From a virus (lineage: Duplodnaviria; Heunggongvirae; Uroviricota; Caudoviricetes): a stretch of 20,419 bases of DNA. The stretch lies in IMG/VR virus record IMGVR_UViG_2565956729_000008, positions 1-20,419 of that record; one strand, written 5' to 3'. Positions within the stretch are counted from its first letter, which is position 1, and every line of letters begins with the position of its first letter. Shown piece by piece: positions 9,447-20,419 of this stretch. Under the pieces are notes generated by a model that made no database searches, was not told the origin of the DNA, and saw only the letters and a list, made by a program, of their open reading frames with translations. A program made the translations under genes and the position numbers.

Positions 9447-9786
9447 TAAACCGCTTTACATTGATTTGCTTATCACCGGTCGCAATTTCACGCTGAACAG
9501 CGCCGCCGAACCGGTGCTGTGCAACAACAGGGAAAGCATTGCCCAGGACTGCCAGCACGCCATCATTGAAAGCGGACTGGCAACGCGCCTGCTGGCTGAA
9601 AAAAGCCCGACGCTTCGCGCCGACATTATGATGCAGATGACACTGCTGATTGAAGATGATGAGCGCATCACACCCGGCACGGTCAGTGTGACAGAGGAAA
9701 CCCCTCTTTCCGGCCGCCTGCTGATTAGCGCCCACACCGAAGATTTTTTTGATCCCCTGACTTTTACGGTATCTCTTGATGATTAA
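9436..9786 (+). CDS. Putative small baseplate protein (position of GpW/gp25-like wedge)
   Basis: 116 aa. ATG at 9436 is preceded by GGAG and overlaps the tape-measure 3' end; the track start at 9283 is an extension. Size and position before the J-like gene suggest a baseplate wedge protein. Sequence similarity to GpW is weak. Confidence 0.3.
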   Translation: MHTDKPLYIDLLITGRNFTLNSAAEPVLCNNRESIAQDCQHAIIESGLATRLLAEKSPTLRADIMMQMTLLIEDDERITPGTVSVTEETPLSGRLLISAHTEDFFDPLTFTVSLDD

Positions 9787-10963
9787 CGGCAAACCAACCG
9801 CAGATTACGAGCGCATTCTGGCTGATAACGGCATGCCGGTAACAGAAGAACAGGCGCGCACTGAATTTGAGGCCATCGTAAAAGACGAAGGGCTTATCAC
9901 TAACACATCCCGCATGTCGCCGTTCTGGCGGTTGATTACAGCCATTACCACAAAGCCCGTGATGTGGCTTAAAGATGCACTGGTTAATGTGGTAATGAAA
10001 AACCTGTTTCTGGTAAGTGCCAGCGGTGTATTTGTGGATGTTTTCGCATGGGCGGTAAACCTGCAGCGCAAGGCTGCCACGCACGCAGCTGGCGTGATTC
10101 GTTTCACAAAAGACGACATTGATCACGCGGTCACCGTACCGGCTGGTACGCAGATTCAGACAGAACGCATTAACGGCGTGATTTATACGCTGACCGTTGT
10201 CAGGGATACCATTATTCCGGCAGGAACACTCAGCATGAACATCGATGTTTCTGCTGAACAGGCCGGAGCCGGGTTTAACCTCGCGCCGGGGTATTACCGC
10301 ATTCTTCCTGTGGCGATTAATGGTATCGCCGGCGTTGAGAACGACGAAAACTGGCTGACCACGCCGGGGGCCAACGAAGAAAGCGACGACGAACTGCGTG
10401 ATCGCGTTCGCAATCAGTTTAATCTTGCCGGTGCTTATCACACCGACGCTGTTTACCGGGGATTAATTGCCGGTGTTGCCGGCATCAGTGCCGACCGCAT
10501 CTATTTTTTGCATGACGCACCACGCGGCCCCGGCACAGCAAACGCTTACATTCTGCTGGATACCGGCATCGCATCCGGACCGTTCGTTGATGCAGTAAAC
10601 GCATTTATTAACGATGAAGGTCATCACGGACACGGCGATGATTTGCGCTGTTTTTCCATGCCTGAAACGCGCCATGCCCTGACCGTGACACTCTGGCTGT
10701 ATGCAACACTGAACCTCAACGCTGAAGAGATACAGGCTTTATTACGCAACGTAGAGAATCTGGTCCGCTGTGCGTTTCGCGAAAACAGCGATTATGACGT
10801 TCAGAAAACATGGCCGTACAGCCGTTTCAGCATGTCCCGACTGGGCGAAGAGATCCACCAGGTATTTCCGCAGGTGGAATCGGTCACGTTTTCCCTTCCG
10901 GATATTCTCAGCGACCTGGCTGTGCCTCGCCTGGAATCCCTTATCGTGGAGGTGGGGTCATGA
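9779..10963 (+). CDS. Baseplate J-like protein
   Basis: 394 aa from the ATG at 9779 (the track uses a TTG at 9776). Start overlaps the upstream stop. The block ESDDELRDRVRNQF resembles the conserved ESD..R.R...F block of P2 GpJ / Baseplate_J proteins. Confidence 0.7.
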   Translation: MINGKPTADYERILADNGMPVTEEQARTEFEAIVKDEGLITNTSRMSPFWRLITAITTKPVMWLKDALVNVVMKNLFLVSASGVFVDVFAWAVNLQRKAATHAAGVIRFTKDDIDHAVTVPAGTQIQTERINGVIYTLTVVRDTIIPAGTLSMNIDVSAEQAGAGFNLAPGYYRILPVAINGIAGVENDENWLTTPGANEESDDELRDRVRNQFNLAGAYHTDAVYRGLIAGVAGISADRIYFLHDAPRGPGTANAYILLDTGIASGPFVDAVNAFINDEGHHGHGDDLRCFSMPETRHALTVTLWLYATLNLNAEEIQALLRNVENLVRCAFRENSDYDVQKTWPYSRFSMSRLGEEIHQVFPQVESVTFSLPDILSDLAVPRLESLIVEVGS

Positions 10964-11595
10964 ATATTCCGGAGATGCCCGAATTCCCTCTCCCAACCTG
11001 GATGAACAAGGGAGAGCCATTAACACTGGCACATTCTTCACATCGTTACTGGGAGAAGGTCTACAGCTGGCTGACATGGCCACTACAGCAAATTGATGTT
11101 GATACCTGCGCAGAGCCTCTGCTTAACCTGCTGGCCTATCAGCGCAACATCACCCGCTTCAGTGGGGAGCCAGTTTCATTATTTCGCTTAAGGGTAAAAC
11201 ACGCGTTTATCAACGCTCAGGACTCGGGCGAACGTGCCGGCTTCGAACGCATCTTTAAGCGTCTTGGCGTGGGAGAGGTAAAAACCCTGGAACGACAGTT
11301 GCAGCATGACTGGGACGTTATTTTACTGCGCATCAATGACACCCAGTTAAGCGAAAACAATGCCCTGATGATGCAGCTCGTGCGCCAGTATGGCCGTACC
11401 TGCAGGCGCTATTTCTTTCAGGTAATCAATACAACCACTGCCCGGCTGACAGCCGGCACATTTGATGGCCATTACAGGTATCACACAGCAGAAGCAACGG
11501 TGAGAAAGGACACCATCTGGTTAACCGCTTCGCTACAGGCAGGACATTACGGCCTGTCCGTGGAGCATTACACATTACAGGCAGACGAAGCATGA
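10960..11595 (+). CDS. Putative baseplate/tail protein I-like
   Basis: 211 aa from the ATG at 10960, overlapping the J stop (ATGA); the track start at 10810 is an upstream extension. Loose pattern similarity to P2 GpI and the canonical position between J and the fiber gene. Confidence 0.45.
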   Translation: MNIPEMPEFPLPTWMNKGEPLTLAHSSHRYWEKVYSWLTWPLQQIDVDTCAEPLLNLLAYQRNITRFSGEPVSLFRLRVKHAFINAQDSGERAGFERIFKRLGVGEVKTLERQLQHDWDVILLRINDTQLSENNALMMQLVRQYGRTCRRYFFQVINTTTARLTAGTFDGHYRYHTAEATVRKDTIWLTASLQAGHYGLSVEHYTLQADEA

Positions 11596-13460
11596 GCACG
11601 ATTATTACTGAACAGTACGAACACTGGTGTGCGAATCAGCTCATCAGTGGAAAACCTGCGCGCCCGGATACATTTGTTTTTGCATATATTCCGGGACAGG
11701 ATGAATCCGCAGAGATCCCCCGCGATGAGATACTCCCTGATGAATCCATGATTCAGTATCGTGCGCCGGTCACCCAGTACGGCCTCCTGTCGCCGAACGC
11801 GACCGCGTTTTCCATCATTCTGGACACGACAGTCGGCGACTTCGAATACAACTGGATCGGTCTGCTGAACGAAGAAAGCGGCGTGCTCTGCATGATTGCA
11901 CACACACCTCGTCAGCAAAAAATTAAAACAGCGAACGGCGTACAGGGAAACAACCTGATCCGCACATTTTCCATGGAGTTTGACGGCGCAGCCGCAGCAA
12001 TGCATATCGATGTCAGTGCTGATGTCTGGCAGATTGATTTCACTGCACGCCTTGCAGGAATGGATGAGGCCCGCCGGCTGCTGGCGTTTGATCACTACGG
12101 TGAAGCCGCTTTTCTGGGGGATGGTTTTCAGGTCAGCTATCAGGATGGTACCGCTACTGTTGCCGCCGGCGTGGGTTATGTGGGAGGTCTGCGCGTCAGT
12201 CTGCGCGAACCTTACAGCCTGCCGGCTGCGGTCGGGGATACCATTTGGATTGATGCAAGCTGGCAGGGATTTGTTACCGGCGAATGGAATACCGTTTTTA
12301 CGTTCTGCGCCCGCCAGGAACATGCGTCCTATACAGACGGTAACGGCTTCCGACACTTTGTCGCGCCACTTGCGAAACTGACATCAGAAGGCTTACAGGA
12401 TTTACGTCCACAGACGCCCGATGAAGAACAAAGCAATGCACTGGCAGAGCACGAAAAATCCCGCCGTCATCCGGACGCAACACTGAAGGAGAAAGGCTTT
12501 GCGCAGTACAGCAACTCCACCGACAGCGACGCAGAAGACCGCGCCGCCACATCAAAGGCAGTAAAAGCCGCAATGGATAAGGCAAAAGGCGCTGTTGAGC
12601 GTGACGGCGACACCATGACCGGGGAACTGAAAATCCGTGGTGTTAATGCGCTGAGGATTTTCAACGAAGCCTTTGGTCTGATTTTTCGTCGTTCGGAAGA
12701 GTGCCTGCACCTTATCCCTACCAGTGAAGGTCAGGGCGAGAATGGCGATATTGGTCCACTTCGACCGTTCACTATTAATCTGCGGACGGGTGAAATATCC
12801 ATGTCGCATAAAGTGTCTGTTGGCGGCGGTTCTCAGGTCAATGGTGCGCTGGGTATCGGCGTTCAGAACGCGCTGGGCGGAAACTCAATTGCTTTCGGGG
12901 ATAACGATACAGGTATAAAACAAAACGGCGACGGCATTCTGGATGTTTATGCGAATGGACAGCATGTATTTCGTTTCCAGAATGGTGTGGCAATAGCGTT
13001 AAAAAATATTCAGGCCGGAAATGCTAAAAAATTCACGTTATCCAGCGACAACAACTCCACGAAAAACGCAACGTTTAATTTATGGGGTAATTCATCCCGA
13101 CCTGTAGTTGCAGAGCTTGGTGATGATTCCGGCTGGCATTTTTACAGCCAGAGAAATACCGATGGCAGTATCACATTCGCTGTAAACGGACAGATGACCC
13201 CATCAAACTATGGAAATTTCGATGCCCGTTATCAGCAGCGAAATGGCGGCGTGCAGGATGTGCGTTATGGTTCCGAAATGTATTACAACCCGGGAGGTAA
13301 CCAGGTATCCTGGACATTTCGCTCACCTTCAGGCCACGGGTTATCCGGTATTAATGTGCAGGAAACCGGAAGTAATTCGGCAGATAACATCGGCGGCGTG
13401 TATTACCGTCCGCTTCAGAAACTGATTAATGGCACCTGGTATAACGTGGCGAGTGTTTAA
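11592..13460 (+). CDS. Tail fiber protein with a P2 GpH-like C-terminal receptor-binding region
   Basis: 622 aa. AEHEKSRRHPDATLKEKGF and the C-terminal ~200 aa (NALGGNSIAFGDNDTGIKQNGDGILDVYANGQHVFRFQNGVAIALKNIQAG ... LINGTWYNVASV) closely match the P2 GpH C-terminus as I recall it. The N-terminal ~150 aa is of a different type from the P2 H N-terminus. Confidence 0.9.
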   Translation: MSTIITEQYEHWCANQLISGKPARPDTFVFAYIPGQDESAEIPRDEILPDESMIQYRAPVTQYGLLSPNATAFSIILDTTVGDFEYNWIGLLNEESGVLCMIAHTPRQQKIKTANGVQGNNLIRTFSMEFDGAAAAMHIDVSADVWQIDFTARLAGMDEARRLLAFDHYGEAAFLGDGFQVSYQDGTATVAAGVGYVGGLRVSLREPYSLPAAVGDTIWIDASWQGFVTGEWNTVFTFCARQEHASYTDGNGFRHFVAPLAKLTSEGLQDLRPQTPDEEQSNALAEHEKSRRHPDATLKEKGFAQYSNSTDSDAEDRAATSKAVKAAMDKAKGAVERDGDTMTGELKIRGVNALRIFNEAFGLIFRRSEECLHLIPTSEGQGENGDIGPLRPFTINLRTGEISMSHKVSVGGGSQVNGALGIGVQNALGGNSIAFGDNDTGIKQNGDGILDVYANGQHVFRFQNGVAIALKNIQAGNAKKFTLSSDNNSTKNATFNLWGNSSRPVVAELGDDSGWHFYSQRNTDGSITFAVNGQMTPSNYGNFDARYQQRNGGVQDVRYGSEMYYNPGGNQVSWTFRSPSGHGLSGINVQETGSNSADNIGGVYYRPLQKLINGTWYNVASV

Positions 13461-13462
13461 CA

Positions 13463-14020
13463 ATGTTACATTTAAAAAATATTACTGCGGGTAATCCGAA
13501 AACCGCGGAACAATATCAGCTGACAAAACAATATGGTGTCACCTGGCTTTTTTCGGAAGACGGCAAAAACTGGTATGAAGAACAGAAGAACTTTGCCAGT
13601 GACACAATAAAAATGGTTTACTCCGGGGACGGGCGCGTGGTGTGGGTCGGTAAGGATGTGACAGGCATTGAACCCCGTAACGCCAGTGTTATTGAAGTTC
13701 CGGATATTACCGCTAATCGCCGTATTACCGCGCCTGGTTACTGGTTTTACCGCGATGGCAATTTTATCTTCGACTACAAACTTAAAGCGGAAGATGAGCG
13801 TGATGCACTGTTAAAACAGGCCAGTATCATGACCAGCGAATGGGAAAAAGACCTGCTGCTGGGATTAATCAGCGACGAAGACAGGGAAAAACTGAAAGCC
13901 TGCCGTATTTATACAAAAACGTTACGGGAGATGACATTCAGCCAGGTTACAGATAAAGCATCGTATGCCACAATTGTATGGCCGGAATTACCGCAGGATA
14001 TTAACGAGAATAAAAAATAA
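13463..14020 (+). CDS. Tail fiber assembly chaperone (GpG/Tfa family)
   Basis: 185 aa immediately downstream of the fiber gene. The C-terminal motif VWPELP matches the conserved WP..P ending of Tfa chaperones. Confidence 0.8.
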   Translation: MLHLKNITAGNPKTAEQYQLTKQYGVTWLFSEDGKNWYEEQKNFASDTIKMVYSGDGRVVWVGKDVTGIEPRNASVIEVPDITANRRITAPGYWFYRDGNFIFDYKLKAEDERDALLKQASIMTSEWEKDLLLGLISDEDREKLKACRIYTKTLREMTFSQVTDKASYATIVWPELPQDINENKK

Positions 14021-16548
14021 TGAGCGCGCTGTTGACGAAAGCATTTGAGAAATGGGTTGCTGAATGTGCCGCCAGTAATTTACCGGCGCGACCTGACTCC
14101 ATTGTTTTTGCACTGATGGAAAGGGAACCATCCAGAAATGATGAAGTTGTCCCTCCTGAAAAAATCACACACACGGTAAATAATCTGCGCTATGGAAAAC
14201 TGGATCCAAACAGCATTGTCTGTAGTGCCGTTGTTGCTGATAACGAGACATTCACTTACGACTGGATTTGCCTGGTCCATCAACCCAGCAACACACTCTG
14301 CGGCGTAATTAAAACCCCGGTTCGTCACAAACTGACCGGCGAAACACTTATCCGCAATTTTGCTGTTATTTATAGCGGACTGGCTCAGGCTGCACACATT
14401 ACTGTTCCTCCTGAAAGCTGGCAAACAGACATCTCGCAGGAGCTGAAAACAATTCAGGGTTTTATCAGCGATCACATAGCAGTATCAACCCGTTATGCGG
14501 TTACCGAAGCTAATAAGCAGTTTTTGTCCATGCAGATAACCCACGGGCGTTATTCAGGGATCTGGCGCTATCTTAATTCAACCGGGGGTATTAACTGGTA
14601 TTTTTTGTTTCTTGCAATGTATGAAAGCGAAGGTAAAGCCTTTTCTCTCAGGGACAGACTCGTTATTTGTGAAAAAGCCTTTCGTCTCGGTATAACAGCG
14701 CCATTCATGACGAATTTCCGCTATGAAGCCGGACAGCATGTGATGATTAACAGCACGCTATTTTTTGTAAATATCGCCGGCATTACTGGAGAAACCACAC
14801 CTGATATCAGTAGCATCTTACAAGGTGAGTTTATTTATACAGGTTCCGCTGTTCTTGAATGTCTCGGGAAGACCAGTAAAGAGATCCCGTCATCATGGTC
14901 ATGGTTCTTTACCGATGTGGCCGCTGATTTATATTCACCGGTTGCCCCTGATTCTACAGACAGTTACCCATCCCTCTGGTTTGCCTGTATTGCTGAAATT
15001 GCAGACGCTTCGTGGTTACAGACCCCTTCAGGGCTCGGCAATCATTCCAGATGGGAAATTATCAGACTGGTAGCGGAAAATAATATTTTACGTCAGCTAA
15101 ATACTGACGCAAATCTGGTAAACGTCTTTCAGGGAAACGTTGCTCCCGGTAATACTCATTACGCGCAATGTTTTTGTCAGGATAATGCCGAAGTGTATGC
15201 CGGTTTACGGGCCCTGGTCTTTCTGGCCGGACTGGTTAATGACTCTGATGCTGCCTCGCAATATTCCAACGCAATGAAAACAATTAAAACAGGGTTGCTG
15301 GCATTATTTGTTCCGGGCCAGAACAGATTCAAGACGTATTACAATGAAGCTGATTACCCCGATACCCCGGGCGATGCGCGTTTTGTGCAAAAAGACCGAT
15401 TCTCTGTGGCTCCGTGGCGCTTTGGTGTGCTGAATACGCCTGCTGAACAGGCACAATATGGACTATCCGTTCTGGATGCCATCCAGAAAGATTATCCCGA
15501 TTTATTTACATCGGATTACGCAGGCATTGATACTTTCGCCATGAGCGACTTTTTTGCATTCGTGGCAAAAGTTACAGCCTCACAGACCGCCGCAACAACA
15601 GCTCTCCGTCGTCTGCAGATCAGAAAAACTGCCGCCGTAACAATTTCAGATATTGCATCAGCAATGTCAGTTTCAGCATGGGGATCAGTCCCCTGCATGA
15701 GTACACGCGACTTTATACGAATTAATGGTCGCTCCGTTGTTGGAGATGAAGATATTGTCTTTCCGGAAAGAGAAATCCGGCACATTACCCCCGTCAATAA
15801 CGCCCAGGTGGTTGTGGATAACCTCAACAATGACACCGTATTGTTTATTGATAATGACTCTGCACTTTCATATCTCCAGTTCAAAATAGCGCCGGGGCTG
15901 GTTGATGGTTGCCGCCTGTCAATCACACCGAAAAGGGACGTGACGAGAACATCATTTCTTACGCAGGATGCGCAGGTTTCAGATGCTCCGGAAGCGTTAT
16001 TTGCAGGGAAAAACGTTACATTTACGTACAATGCAACAACGCAAACATGGCACAGAAACTTTGTACCTGCAGTTTCTTCTGCTGCTACAAATTTATTGAA
16101 AAAACAATCAGAATCTCTGTTTGTTGATGGCGCTCACCCGATCATCCCCAAAATGCTTGTAAGCACCCTGAACTCCAGTCTGGATTCATTTAAAAGCCTG
16201 CCCGATGGTTCGCGTGTTTATACCCTGAAGCTGGATGTATCAAACCCCGTCGGGCAATCCTCAGTTGGCGGCATCGGAATCGCTGTTTCAGCGCAGATTG
16301 AGCCGCGTTATCTCTATCAGAACCAGAACCGACAGTACATTCCAGCGCAGTATTTTGTCAGCTCTGTCTCTGCAAATGCGCGAACAATCACTATCGGAAT
16401 ACAGGTGGTGATGCCTGATAAACCTTACTATGCACTGGATATGTCAACACTGGAAGAAATTGCCGGCGCAGATAATGGGTTGCTCCCCTGTGTTGTGGTT
16501 ATAAAAACACTTGCAGGGACAACGTTGCGTCAGAACGGAATGGGATAA
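14020..16548 (+). CDS. Second tail fiber / receptor-binding protein candidate
   Basis: 842 aa, start overlapping the Tfa stop (TAATGA). Residues 1-140 align with the N-terminus of the fiber at 11592 (shared E.W.A, PARPD..VFA, Y.WI.L, S..LC, TP, LIR.F, AA.HI.V, WQ.D). The remainder is unrelated: a helix-rich central region and a beta-rich Ser/Thr/Asn-rich C-terminus. Confidence 0.55.
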   Translation: MSALLTKAFEKWVAECAASNLPARPDSIVFALMEREPSRNDEVVPPEKITHTVNNLRYGKLDPNSIVCSAVVADNETFTYDWICLVHQPSNTLCGVIKTPVRHKLTGETLIRNFAVIYSGLAQAAHITVPPESWQTDISQELKTIQGFISDHIAVSTRYAVTEANKQFLSMQITHGRYSGIWRYLNSTGGINWYFLFLAMYESEGKAFSLRDRLVICEKAFRLGITAPFMTNFRYEAGQHVMINSTLFFVNIAGITGETTPDISSILQGEFIYTGSAVLECLGKTSKEIPSSWSWFFTDVAADLYSPVAPDSTDSYPSLWFACIAEIADASWLQTPSGLGNHSRWEIIRLVAENNILRQLNTDANLVNVFQGNVAPGNTHYAQCFCQDNAEVYAGLRALVFLAGLVNDSDAASQYSNAMKTIKTGLLALFVPGQNRFKTYYNEADYPDTPGDARFVQKDRFSVAPWRFGVLNTPAEQAQYGLSVLDAIQKDYPDLFTSDYAGIDTFAMSDFFAFVAKVTASQTAATTALRRLQIRKTAAVTISDIASAMSVSAWGSVPCMSTRDFIRINGRSVVGDEDIVFPEREIRHITPVNNAQVVVDNLNNDTVLFIDNDSALSYLQFKIAPGLVDGCRLSITPKRDVTRTSFLTQDAQVSDAPEALFAGKNVTFTYNATTQTWHRNFVPAVSSAATNLLKKQSESLFVDGAHPIIPKMLVSTLNSSLDSFKSLPDGSRVYTLKLDVSNPVGQSSVGGIGIAVSAQIEPRYLYQNQNRQYIPAQYFVSSVSANARTITIGIQVVMPDKPYYALDMSTLEEIAGADNGLLPCVVVIKTLAGTTLRQNGMG

Positions 16549-16572
16549 CATTTGAACGTACAGGAAAATGAG

Positions 16573-17295
16573 ATGAAATATTCTGTATGGGAGCACGCCA
16601 TTCTGCGCCCGGCCCCCATGGCCATCACCTGTTCAATGGTTTGCCTCCATCCATGGTCAGAAAATACGGGAAACATTACACCATCGGGGCGTTATCTCAG
16701 CCCGGATAATGCTGTATCCGCGCTTTTACCTTATCTGACAGAAAGCACTGAAAAAGACGTTGTGGCGCTGTTATTTTGCGCCCCGTCTGCAGGCGAGTTT
16801 TTATCACTGGCCAGACAGTTTTCAGGTGCACTTCCATTGCCGGAAGTGGGAAGAATGTCCCGCATGATCTCCAGCCAGCTTTCGCTGGCCGTGAGTAAAA
16901 TGCAGCTCCCTGCAAAACCTGTAACCACACTTCCTGCAGAGGTCACGCTGTCCACACAGACCATCCGCAGCATGACGCGGGCAGCGACTATTGCGCAGGC
17001 TGCGATCCCGACCGCTGTATCTCCGGAAACATTATCCTCGTCTCTGAATCAGTTCAGAATCGCGAGAGATAAGGCACTACAGGAAATCACCGACCAGCAG
17101 GCCGCAATTCAGAAAAACACGTGTCCGGTGTGGCGTTTTTTTTATACGGGCACACTAAATCAGGTTGCAGCACTGATAAAAAAAAATATTCCACATCCGG
17201 AATGGGTTTTTACAGCTGTGATGCTGTTTGTCGGTAATGATCTTTCATCACTAAGAGAATCACTACATGACCCAGATGATCGTTCTTGCACTTGA
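16573..17295 (+). CDS. Hypothetical protein (orphan, no recognisable family)
   Basis: About 240 aa from the ATG at 16573, preceded by AGGAAAA; the track uses a TTG at 16552. Tightly packed between the second fiber gene and the U-like gene with a 3' overlap. Low-complexity Ser/Thr/Ala-rich middle region. Confidence 0.4.
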   Translation: MKYSVWEHAILRPAPMAITCSMVCLHPWSENTGNITPSGRYLSPDNAVSALLPYLTESTEKDVVALLFCAPSAGEFLSLARQFSGALPLPEVGRMSRMISSQLSLAVSKMQLPAKPVTTLPAEVTLSTQTIRSMTRAATIAQAAIPTAVSPETLSSSLNQFRIARDKALQEITDQQAAIQKNTCPVWRFFYTGTLNQVAALIKKNIPHPEWVFTAVMLFVGNDLSSLRESLHDPDDRSCT

Positions 17296-17842
17296 CGGGG
17301 AAGCCATTCTGTTACGCAACATCATCGTCAGCGCCACCATGCAACTACCGGATAAAGATATGTCCGGACAGTCAACCAGCACCACCAGTGCCCAGCAGGG
17401 AAGCAAGGCTAAAGAGCTGCGTGTATCAGGCGTCATTGATTTTAATGATGAAGCTGTTCTGACCCGTATATTTCAGCTTGCAGAAGCCACAGAAAGCAAC
17501 GGGGCTAAAAAAACATACCGCATCGCCAACGCTACTGCTAAGGCGATTAATATGCGACAGGGTGTTTTTTCGGGCGGCATTGATGCCACGGAACAACAGG
17601 GCAAGATGCACTGGCAGGTCACCTTTACTCTCAGGGAAAAATTAAGCGTGCCGGAAAAAGCATCGGCACGCAGTGGCTCACAGAAAACAATCGCAAAGCA
17701 GCAAACACAGAACGGCAGTGAGCAGGCACCGGATAAAGGAATGAATACCCAGGAGACTTTCTGGAAAAATATCAATGATGGTATTGGCTCCGGGCTGGAC
17801 TGGATTGGCATCGGGAGCGTGAAAGAGGAAGGGAAAACATGA
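17267..17842 (+). CDS. Putative tail protein (GpU-like)
   Basis: 191 aa; alternative start at 17276 (MIVLALDGE). Loose pattern resemblance to P2 GpU. Directly precedes the hub/spike-like gene, as U precedes D in P2. Confidence 0.4.
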   Translation: MTQMIVLALDGEAILLRNIIVSATMQLPDKDMSGQSTSTTSAQQGSKAKELRVSGVIDFNDEAVLTRIFQLAEATESNGAKKTYRIANATAKAINMRQGVFSGGIDATEQQGKMHWQVTFTLREKLSVPEKASARSGSQKTIAKQQTQNGSEQAPDKGMNTQETFWKNINDGIGSGLDWIGIGSVKEEGKT

Positions 17843-19536
17843 AGTTAATCCAACGTTGCATGATTAATGGCGAGCTGGCGGAAATTGCCGATATCAGCCT
17901 TGTCCTTACCCTGAATGCTGCCGGTCGCGGCTTCATTTCTGTTAATAATCTGTCACCGGAAAAAAGCCTTGCCGGCGCAATGATACAAATTGATCTCGGC
18001 CGTAATGGTGAGGCATGGCGCTATTTCTCCGGCTACATTGAGCGCGATCAACCCGCCGAAAATGGCTCACGCCGCCTTTTTATCCGTGAAGCAGCTGCCG
18101 TGCTGGATTTTGATTTCCCCTGCTCCATGCAACATCCAACGTTACGGGATGTACTCGATAATCTGGGTAAACAAAGCGGCATCGTTTTCATCACGCCAGA
18201 TGCAGATTACGTCAGCACACCGACACCTTACATCACCCACAGCGGCAGCGGAGCACAACTGCTCAGCCAGCTGGGGCGAGCATTCAGTATCAGCGATTAC
18301 GTCTGGCATCCAATGCCGGACGGTTCCGTATTTGTGGGAAGTGCACCGGATTCACGGTTTGCCAGTATTACCATGCCGGATATTCCGCAGCAGTACACAC
18401 TCGGACAAAGCGGCGGAAACAGCATCGACATCATGTTTATGGAAACTGTGCGACCGGGCGTGAACCTTCCGGCCGGGCGCATTACCCGTGTAGCCCTCAA
18501 CAACGAGAAAATGACCCTGACATGGGAACGCCTTACCGCCACGGGTAGCCCTGTTTCCAAATCACCATTACGCAGACAGATGGAAACACAGTTCCCGGAA
18601 CTGGCCAGCGGCACTCTGCATACCCGACTGGCGCGCGTCATTGCCCCAACGGAATCCGTCACCCTGGGCGATATTGCCGACAGCTTCCGCCCACGCTACG
18701 CCGTCGATGTGCAACTGCTTGATGAGAACGGCAACGATAAAAGCGATACGCCTGTTTATCCGGCAGTACCACTCCCCGTCCCGATGGCTGGTAGCGAAGC
18801 GGGATGTTTTGCCTACCCGCCGGCAGGCACCATCGTGGAAATATCCAACATTGAAGGGCGACCGGATAAACCTGTCATCAGGCAAATCTTACCCGCGGGC
18901 CATAACCTGCCTGATGTAAAGCCCGGCGAACAGCTGCAGCAACAGCGCGCAGAGGTGTTTCAGCGCGTCACGACTGACGGAAGCTGGCACAGAGAAACTG
19001 ACCAGCAAATCAGGGAGCATTCAGCCAGGCGAACCATTAACAGCGATCAGGAAGAACGCACAACAACAACCAGAACAACAACAGTCCAAGCAAACGACAT
19101 AACCAGTGTTCTTGGTACCAGTAAGCTGATGACAGGCCAGACAGAACACCTTACTACCGGCAATTATGCGATCGCAGCCGGTGAGCATATCCAGATGGTA
19201 GCGCAGGATTTGCTGACTCAACTCAAAGGGGCGATATCCACCATTGAGCATGACCTCACCGAAAACGTGGGAGGCCGCAGAACATGCAGGGCGGACGGAG
19301 GTCTGGAGTTTACCGCCCCGACAGTATTTATTGGTCGCGGTGGCTCGCGGGAAAAATCCGGGCTTAACCTGCTGACATTGCTGATCGATATTCTGGACCT
19401 GGTTCAGTTGCTGGCCACACATACAGCAAACCACACCCATAGCAACACTGGCACGCCAATGAACAGCGGCGAACTTGCCGCAGATGCCCTGCAGGCAACG
19501 AGCCTGCGCGAAAAATACGGCGACATTATCGCCTGA
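17839..19536 (+). CDS. Putative baseplate hub / central spike protein (GpD/GpV-like)
   Basis: 565 aa, start overlapping the upstream stop (ATGA). Last gene before a strong terminator. C-terminal THTANHTHSNTGTP resembles the His-x-His apex motif of P2 GpV-type spikes. Its length suggests a fused hub-spike architecture. This is an inference. Confidence 0.45.
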   Translation: MKLIQRCMINGELAEIADISLVLTLNAAGRGFISVNNLSPEKSLAGAMIQIDLGRNGEAWRYFSGYIERDQPAENGSRRLFIREAAAVLDFDFPCSMQHPTLRDVLDNLGKQSGIVFITPDADYVSTPTPYITHSGSGAQLLSQLGRAFSISDYVWHPMPDGSVFVGSAPDSRFASITMPDIPQQYTLGQSGGNSIDIMFMETVRPGVNLPAGRITRVALNNEKMTLTWERLTATGSPVSKSPLRRQMETQFPELASGTLHTRLARVIAPTESVTLGDIADSFRPRYAVDVQLLDENGNDKSDTPVYPAVPLPVPMAGSEAGCFAYPPAGTIVEISNIEGRPDKPVIRQILPAGHNLPDVKPGEQLQQQRAEVFQRVTTDGSWHRETDQQIREHSARRTINSDQEERTTTTRTTTVQANDITSVLGTSKLMTGQTEHLTTGNYAIAAGEHIQMVAQDLLTQLKGAISTIEHDLTENVGGRRTCRADGGLEFTAPTVFIGRGGSREKSGLNLLTLLIDILDLVQLLATHTANHTHSNTGTPMNSGELAADALQATSLREKYGDIIA

Positions 19537-20096: not shown

Positions 20097-20126
20097 TTGA
20101 AACAGAAGAGATGATCAGGCTAGAAT
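20097..20126 (+). promoter_or_regulatory. Candidate sigma70 promoter for the hok-like transcript
   Basis: TTGAAA (20097-20102), 18-bp spacer, TAGAAT (20121-20126). A GATC lies in the spacer. Predicted start site is about 145 nt upstream of the hok-like ATG, consistent with the long structured leaders of hok-family mRNAs. Confidence 0.3.
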
Positions 20127-20258
20127 CGCTGCGGGTGCCTTTCGGCTGATGGTCGGAGGGTAAGCCCGAAGGCCGGATGTGGAAAGGCCCCGGAAAACAT
20201 TTTCTGTTTAACCGAGGCCCTATCCCGTCTACCTAGCAAGTGACAGGTTAGCGCCTCC

Positions 20259-20372
20259 ATGAAAAAGGAGCAAGCGCTATGTCGCAAAAATCGCTTACGG
20301 CCATCACGTTCTGCGCGACGGTCATCCTTATCATCTGGATGTTGCACGGTTCGCTGTGTGAAATACGGATGA
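20259..20372 (+). CDS. Possible mok-like overlapping reading frame
   Basis: ATG at 20259 opens a 37-codon frame that overlaps the hok-like ORF in another frame and ends at TGA 20370-20372. Arrangement is reminiscent of mok/hok translational coupling. It is shorter than canonical mok. Confidence 0.25.
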   Translation: MKKEQALCRKNRLRPSRSARRSSLSSGCCTVRCVKYG

Positions 20373-20419
20373 GCTTCTGGGGTGCGGAGTTTGCGGCGTT
20401 CTTACAATGTAAACAGTAA
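20279..20419 (+). CDS. hok: Hok/Gef-family type I toxin (small membrane protein)
   Basis: 46-aa ORF, MSQKSLTAITFCATVILIIWMLHGSLCEIRMSFWGAEFAAFLQCKQ. Hydrophobic transmembrane N-terminus with C-A-T-V-I, then SLCEIR identical to the plasmid R1 Hok core, and an EVAAF-like EFAAF. GGAG ribosome-binding site 8 nt upstream. Absent from the ORF track because of its size. Confidence 0.8.
   Translation: MSQKSLTAITFCATVILIIWMLHGSLCEIRMSFWGAEFAAFLQCKQ

Follow-up and report, generated by a model that had tools for sequence, protein, structure and literature searches.

The stretch of DNA analysed here (the window) comprises 20,419 nucleotides (nt) of the IMG/VR virus record IMGVR_UViG_2565956729_000008 and covers the late head and tail genes of an Escherichia-group prophage with a P2-type head and an HP1-type tail. 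Two fibre proteins are encoded in its tail operon: a gpH-like primary tail fibre (fibre 1), followed by a tail-fibre assembly chaperone (Tfa), and a protein of 842 amino acids (aa), hereafter fibre 2, whose gene begins with an ATG start codon (14020-16548, + strand, as for all genes and domains of the tail operon located below). Fibre 2 is probably a virion-borne, tailspike-type second receptor-binding protein (RBP) of an HP1/P2-like (Peduoviridae-type) prophage of the E. coli group. Indeed, it combines (i) an N-terminal anchor homologous to that of fibre 1, (ii) a body predicted to fold as an (alpha/alpha)6 barrel with two beta-sandwich domains, and (iii) a barrel whose homologues are carried by other phage tail anchors, in some cases as the sole fibre or tailspike.

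Anchor and body of the second fibre protein

The anchor of fibre 2 (aa 1-142, 14020-14445) belongs to the tail-fibre N-terminal domain family PF12571: residues 3-146 cover profile positions 7-150 of 150, and both fibre 1 (101.8 bits) and fibre 2 (38.2 bits) score above the gathering cut-off of 23. An earlier note on this DNA, made from the letters and translations only, had proposed that the two proteins share about 140 N-terminal aa and then diverge completely, and this was borne out by pairwise BLASTP, in which residues 1-154 of fibre 1 and residues 1-142 of fibre 2 form the one significant segment (36% identity, E=1e-23), with no second segment better than E=0.86. The anchor of fibre 1 shares 47% identity with the N-terminus of gp20, the sole fibre of the cultured relative Salmonella phage SI7, and that of fibre 2 shares 32% with the same protein, so that fibre 1 is regarded as the orthologue of the SI7 fibre and fibre 2 as a diverged paralogue. 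In P2 and in R-type pyocins, the fibre anchor docks as a trimer on the baseplate wedge; by analogy, the gpJ/gpI wedge is the presumed docking partner of the fibre anchors of the window, and the anchor of fibre 2 would trimerise and dock on it. Fibre 2 has neither a PF03406 fibre repeat nor a gp37-like tip, and no adjacent PF02413 chaperone is assignable to it; the marks of a Tfa-dependent fibrous fibre were thus not found. Among the cultured phages of INPHARED, searched by Megablast and tblastn, only the anchor was matched (26-33% identity) and the body was not, and a plasmid search gave no match to fibre 2.

The body was modelled with AlphaFold2 (residues 150-842, 60-sequence alignment), with a mean predicted local distance difference test score (pLDDT) of 87.1. 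In this model, a helical neck (aa 157-170) precedes a glycoside hydrolase (GH)-like (alpha/alpha)6-barrel core of 11 to 13 helices (aa ~190-555, 14587-15684), into which a beta-stranded element is inserted (aa 225-283, 14692-14868; strands E76-134 of the body model). A flexible linker follows the barrel and leads to beta-sandwich domain 1 (aa ~585-671, 15772-16032, delimited from the model and from alignments), and a second, disordered linker separates the latter from the C-terminal beta-sandwich domain 2 (aa ~711-835, 16150-16524), whose pLDDT, as means over 10-residue blocks, is 82-97. The central region, which the earlier note had described as rich in helices, is so in the models, and its predicted twelve-helix barrel superposes on known members of the (alpha/alpha)6-barrel (six-hairpin) glycosidase fold. 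The closest structural neighbours are a dextran dextrinase (9ju0; figure of 22.6, 299 residues aligned, 3.0 A), the methylmannose-polysaccharide endo-hydrolase MmpH (7qsj; 21.1) and a bacterial GH15 glucoamylase (1lf6; 20.9), followed at figures of 15-20 by GH8, GH63 (YgjK), GH37, GH78, GH76, GH52, GH94-type phosphorylases and others. Enzymes of the (alpha/alpha)6 type account for nearly all of the top 50 Foldseek matches in the PDB; the remaining few are weak, with low template-modelling (TM) scores, and three of them are fibre, tailspike or pilus proteins.

Two conserved motifs are found in the core: PDSxDxY (aa 310-316, 14947-14967), containing D311 and D314, which is kept in 45-47 of 48 homologues and is invariant in alignment A1, and QDNxE (aa 387-391, 15178-15192), in which D388 and E391 are each present in 46 of 48. 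Seven carboxylates in all (D299, D311, D314, D388, E391, D504 and D544) are retained in 42-47 of the 48 core-containing homologues, down to ~20-25% identity. In the models, the QDNxE motif opens an inner barrel helix (386-405), and a sub-threshold match to PF22422, discussed below, also starts there. This is the usual place of catalytic residues in (alpha/alpha)6 enzymes, and D388 and E391 are candidate catalytic carboxylates. In the preferred reading, the barrel would bind, and most probably cleave, a surface polysaccharide (O-antigen, capsule or other envelope glycan). For the barrel insertion, the profile pointed to the chitin-binding domain of chitinase A1, though without significance (E=0.78), through the pattern Y-x-x-G-x-x-V...G-K-x-F; the insertion may be a small carbohydrate-binding element resembling families 5/12 of the carbohydrate-binding modules (CBM5/12-like). 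The unit that forms beta-sandwich 1 (~100 aa, motif RHITPxNNAQVV...LSYLQF...YNA..W) is present once in fibre 2 and in three tandem copies in the homologues P0008 and P0009 (alignments A1 and A3), and looks like a length-variable spacer or a binding repeat.

The barrel family is small, a search of 1.84 billion proteins having yielded 72 representatives (E<=1e-3). Different partner proteins are matched by the core (aa 150-560) and by the C-terminal domain (aa 685-842), so that the two are regarded as independent modules; the C-terminal domain has a match set of its own at query residues 535-692 (e.g. P0031, P0123 and P0124), and barrel-less fibre proteins are among those that share it. According to alignment A1 and to Pfam and PHROG scans, the core is fused to at least five anchor types. 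It is carried by a lambda-Stf-like PF08400 anchor, in a protein whose body is 79% identical to that of fibre 2, and also by PF12571 (P2-gpH-type), T7-fibre PF03906, collagen-like and other 'tail protein' anchors. The N-termini of P0027, P0029 and P0030 are presumably epsilon15-tailspike-like, and those of P0009 and P0026 presumably P1-S-like. Every homologue examined has a phage tail-fibre or tailspike anchor.

The genomic contexts of these homologues point in the same direction. In a canonical P2-type prophage (L004), the 1063-aa barrel protein P0008 is the sole fibre, encoded directly after gpI and without a Tfa, and in an epsilon15-like prophage (L005) a 723-aa version (P0029) is the only large gene before the holin/endolysin cassette, i.e. 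in the tailspike position. In a Mu-like E. coli prophage (L001) and in a baseplate-J prophage (L009), the order is fibre, Tfa, then barrel protein; both are myovirus tail modules unrelated to that of the window, and the layout is therefore recurrent. In L009, the gene of a DUF4376 protein (10027-10593 of that locus) comes after that of the barrel protein, which has 903 aa and a PF08400 anchor. DUF4376 often occurs in tail-fibre assembly proteins, so some members of the barrel family may use a helper; others clearly have none. A search of GTDB representative genomes gave 27 pattern matches, of which 0 were confirmed. An enzyme-like head, interchangeable anchors and an RBP gene position, as in tailspike/depolymerase-type RBPs, were all found, and these comparisons show the barrel module to be, as far as sequence and gene context tell, a true RBP module that is independent of Tfa and recurrently serves as a second RBP.

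Several findings weigh against assigning fibre 2 as an enzymatic, virion-borne RBP. The barrel family is known from sequences and predicted models alone. The match to PF22422 (GH63-like, MGH1-like GH domain) reaches 17.8-18.2 bits in fibre 2 against a gathering cut-off of 27, and 11 of 60 family members match (best E=1.3e-5), the best score in relatives, 25.4 bits, also staying below this cut-off; fibre 2 is therefore not to be filed in PF22422. No significant solved structure was retrieved from the PDB by sequence, either with the single protein or with the 60-sequence profile. In the full-length model of the monomer, residues 1-159 have a pLDDT <50, because few of the aligned sequences share the anchor of fibre 2, and two anchors at 36% identity fit shared or separate docking sites alike.

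Part of this evidence favours a reading in which fibre 2 is a virion-borne RBP and its barrel a non-catalytic, lectin-like glycan-binding domain: the PF22422 match is below threshold, the barrel has no sequence similarity to solved enzymes, its catalytic residues are candidates only, and the two additional beta-sandwich domains could bind as well. We consider a lectin-like barrel unlikely, however, since the carboxylates, including those of QDNxE at the start of the inner helix, are kept in very distant homologues, the module takes the place of an enzymatic tailspike in the epsilon15-like prophage, and the closest structural neighbours are, without exception, active hydrolases or transferases. 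Of the suggestion in the earlier note that the central region could be a glycan-degrading domain, the fold can now be assigned, from the AlphaFold2 model and Foldseek, as (alpha/alpha)6 glycosidase-like, and the catalytic activity stays a prediction.

The second-fibre slot in related prophages

About 88% of the window is matched at ~91% identity by prophages of 41 complete E. coli genomes, and an IMG/VR contig (L006) encodes a fibre 2 core that is 100% identical at the protein level, with the same layout of open reading frames (ORFs) across the part covered. Within this lineage, fibre 2 appears to be one version of an exchangeable gene. In an E. coli prophage from strain RIVM_C019217 (L002), the second-fibre anchor is 81% identical over 142 residues and the similarity ends abruptly at aa 142. 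Megablast of the fibre 2 gene likewise yielded anchor-type matches to nt 1-404 and a body-type match to nt 437-2524, and in alignment A1 the shared core begins at 'GFIxDH'; an anchor/body recombination junction is accordingly placed at aa ~135-146 (14423-14456). Dozens of further 90%-identity clusters came out of a protein search, their sources being E. coli, E. marmotae, E. ruysiae, Salmonella and Citrobacter; in the variants listed, the anchors are 72-75% identical to that of fibre 2 and the total lengths are 474-811 aa. No Pfam domain beyond PF12571 was detected in eight second-fibre-slot proteins (285-811 aa, including the L002 second-fibre gene product and its 352-aa partner). The slot is typical of the prophage lineage (at least 41 complete E. 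coli genomes), and its bodies are interchangeable. A dual-fibre layout, which the earlier note took for an oddity among P2-like phages, is instead the norm in this lineage; nothing specific on dual-fibre P2-like phages was found in the literature.

In L002, the slot is split (16853-18793 of that prophage): one gene encodes a 285-aa protein with the PF12571 anchor, the other a hypothetical protein of 352 aa without any Pfam domain. The split slot could represent a two-part fibre or a disrupted gene. A C-terminal domain common to fibre 2 and to this 352-aa protein was considered and rejected, as a comparison found the two unrelated.

A comparison with phage SI7 (Irrigatiovirus, Peduoviridae) and with other HP1-type tail modules locates the insertion. 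The gene order sheath, tube, tape-measure protein, DUF2590 protein, J, I, fibre, Tfa, gp22-like gene, ORF34-like gene and hub is shared, and gpI is 52% identical between the window and SI7, in addition to the anchor identity of fibre 1 given above. However, SI7 has a single fibre, its order being fibre, Tfa, gp22, gp23 and gp24, whereas the window and its E. coli relatives carry an additional fibre gene between Tfa and the gp22-like gene. As the same module occurs in SI7 with one fibre, fibre 2 is an insertion that separates Tfa from three conserved genes of the baseplate region.

These data also bear on the possibility that both fibres compete for the same six baseplate sites, giving mosaic virions, or that fibre 2, as a decoy or regulator, leaves the virion with fewer functional primary fibres. 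The PF12571 anchor type is common to both fibres, no extra adaptor gene is visible in the window relative to SI7, and gpJ and gpI are about equal in size to their counterparts in that single-fibre phage, all of which would suit such a competition. Nevertheless, the second-fibre anchors, at the identities given above to L002 and to the other variants of the slot and at 36% to fibre 1, form a conserved class of their own, which suggests long coexistence and a specialised contact. Furthermore, a pure decoy would need no conserved, enzyme-like body of 700 aa, and the body of fibre 2 is a functional RBP module that is the sole fibre or tailspike elsewhere, in L004 and L005, so that the decoy idea, also raised in the earlier note, found no support and is strongly disfavoured. 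Competition between the fibres for the same sites is judged quite improbable, and a dedicated second RBP is retained as the preferred reading.

The tail operon and its base composition

Genes for a capsid scaffold, a major capsid protein, a small terminase, a head completion protein, a DUF2586-type sheath and a tube are followed in the window by those for a holin, an endolysin, a tape-measure protein, a DUF2590 protein and the baseplate proteins J and I. Next come fibre 1, Tfa and fibre 2, and then the genes for a protein of 247 aa, an HP1_ORF34-family protein and a hub/baseplate protein of 565 aa. The gpJ-like (9776-10963; PF04865) and gpI-like (10960-11595; PF09684) baseplate wedge proteins of the contractile-tail J/I type are encoded immediately upstream of the fibre genes. 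The longest gpI-like ORF runs from 10810 to 11595 (261 aa) and overlaps the gpJ gene by ~150 nt; in RefSeq relatives gpI is annotated as a shorter 211-aa form abutting gpJ, and the true start is therefore probably at 10960. Fibre 1 (622 aa, 11592-13460) contains PF12571 plus PF03406 and is followed, as the earlier note had stated, by its own Tfa (13463-14020; PF02413, 79.7 bits; phrog_136).

The ATG of fibre 2 overlaps the stop codon of the Tfa gene (TAATG). No terminator-like site was detected on the + strand between the fibre genes, and neither long inverted repeats nor an invertase were found around them; the fibre 2 gene is therefore regarded as a member of the late operon located outside any invertible segment. 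Fibre switching by a Min/Cin-type invertible segment was considered and rejected, the window having no long inverted repeats and no invertase. That fibre 2 would be a non-virion, free polysaccharide hydrolase, released at lysis or active in the lysogen and bearing a vestigial anchor, is conceivable insofar as glycan hydrolases could have a lysis-associated role, but is very hard to reconcile with a gene within the tail/baseplate operon that is coupled to Tfa, with an anchor above the PF12571 threshold and with the tail-fibre or tailspike anchors of all homologues examined.

The gene that follows fibre 2 (247 aa, 16552-17295; phrog_1677) had been described in the earlier note as an orphan. It is in fact a conserved baseplate-region gene and not specific to fibre 2, since it shares 74% identity with the gene at the same position in L002 and 32% (E=1e-31) with gp22, at the equivalent position in SI7; NCBIfam contains no family for it. 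A function as a Tfa-like chaperone of fibre 2 was rejected, as the gene is kept in single-fibre phages and is without PF02413. Downstream are encoded an HP1_ORF34-family baseplate protein (17267-17842; PF25759, 181 bits) and a 565-aa baseplate or hub protein (17839-19536; phrog_2258). The latter shows weak similarity to the VgrG tip (TIGR01646, E=3e-4) and is presumably the hub or spike of the tail; in one E. coli genome, a gene in the matched region, probably its counterpart, is annotated as a type VI secretion system (T6SS) Vgr family protein. The window closes with a toxin locus of the Hok/Gef type (MokW-like, host-killing; 20121-20419), which is ~90-92% identical to loci of Xuanwuvirus/P88-type phages and is annotated as Hok/Gef in an E. 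coli relative.

The fibre 2 gene, which had been thought to be AT-richer than the head genes, has a GC content of 0.46-0.48 and a third-codon-position GC content (GC3) of 0.42-0.46, against 0.53-0.58 and 0.61-0.66, respectively, in the head genes. The low-GC tract extends from ~12600, in the tip of fibre 1, to ~17300 and spans at least two independently mosaic cassettes. Positions 12562-13911, i.e. the tip of fibre 1 and most of Tfa, share ~91-93% identity with Stx phage phiP27, Actinobacillus phage vB_Apl-pPE4 and Rac-SA53, and outside these positions nothing in the window closely matches a cultured phage; the tip of fibre 1 and Tfa are an independent mosaic cassette, in which the drop in GC begins. 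A 31-nt direct repeat (77% identical) is located at 12999-13029, in distal fibre 1, where it encodes LKNIQAGNAKK, and at 13472-13502, at the extreme start of Tfa, where it encodes LKNITAGNPKT; the repeat could mark a hotspot of recombination or be left over from an exchange of cassettes.

Proposed role and comparison with known systems

In the mechanism that we propose, fibre 2 is a product of the late tail operon, its translation being coupled to that of Tfa; it would fold without a Tfa-type chaperone and would be attached by its PF12571 anchor to the gpJ/gpI baseplate wedge. Its body is a mobile cassette made of a short helical neck, the (alpha/alpha)6 barrel and the two beta-sandwich domains; the barrel would bind, and probably hydrolyse, a surface glycan, and the beta-sandwiches would add binding or trimer stability. 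Fibre 2 would then likely recognise or clear a glycan layer and fibre 1, assembled with its Tfa, would engage a receptor of its own; recombination at the anchor/body junction could alter the host range. A more far-reaching version, put forward only tentatively, is that the two PF12571 anchors occupy distinct baseplate positions and that the barrel founds a new GH family of Tfa-free tailspike enzymes for enterobacterial surface glycans, moving between myo-, sipho- and podovirus anchors.

RBPs set the host range of phages and are swapped in the engineering of phages, tailocins and diagnostic probes. The tailspike enzymes characterised so far are, with few known exceptions, beta-helices or beta-propellers. 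An (alpha/alpha)6 head that is carried by at least five anchor types and is free of Tfa would be a compact, portable specificity module and could define a new family in CAZy. Furthermore, the locus is a tractable natural P2/HP1-type baseplate with two paralogous fibre anchors and could settle whether, and how, a six-fold wedge accommodates two sets of RBPs.

The fold class itself has been met before in phage proteins. 'Alpha/alpha toroid' folds make up 11 of 984 (1.1%) of the depolymerase folds predicted in INPHARED (DepoScope, PMC11326577) and were reported for 29 sequences (<1%) in Klebsiella prophages (PMC12491483). Fibre 2 belongs to the same rare fold class of phage and prophage RBPs. These catalogues are computational, however, and the fibre 2 family is absent from the cultured phages of INPHARED; a search of the viral fold database BFVD gave no match over the barrel, only short beta-domain matches. 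In addition, nothing specific was found in the literature on GH63, glucoamylase or six-hairpin tailspikes, and the barrel family is without functional annotation: fibre 2 matches over its full length phrog_33169 ('unknown function'), the only PHROG that covers the core, NCBIfam contains no family for it, and no Pfam model of the body's own passed. Dual or multiple RBPs with common anchors and horizontally swapped enzymatic heads are well known and, since modular dual RBPs and the fold class are already recognised, the advance would be incremental rather than conceptual.

Compared with the (alpha/alpha)6 hydrolases (GH15 glucoamylase/dextran dextrinase, the endo-mannanase MmpH, GH63/PF22422, GH37, GH8 and GH78), the barrel shares the fold at 9-13% identity, but differs in its beta-rich insertion and in its fusion to a phage anchor, with a PF22422 match below threshold and no sequence-profile match in the PDB. 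With P2 gpH and the R-type pyocin fibre, which have a Tfa (gpG), fibre 2 has in common PF12571 at the N-terminus, a gene position after gpJ/gpI in a contractile-tail baseplate operon and modular swaps of the body; in contrast, it has no PF03406, no gp37-like tip and no Tfa, and carries a globular (alpha/alpha)6 barrel in place of a fibrous shaft. Phages of the SP6/K1-5, KP32 and CBA120 types carry multiple RBPs with a common tailspike anchor and, as in the epsilon15 tailspike, a conserved anchor is joined to an exchangeable enzymatic head, as is proposed here for fibre 2. Those systems have beta-helix or beta-propeller enzymes and dedicated adaptor proteins, whereas fibre 2 joins a paralogue of a P2-type fibre anchor to an enzyme-like head with an (alpha/alpha)6 barrel.

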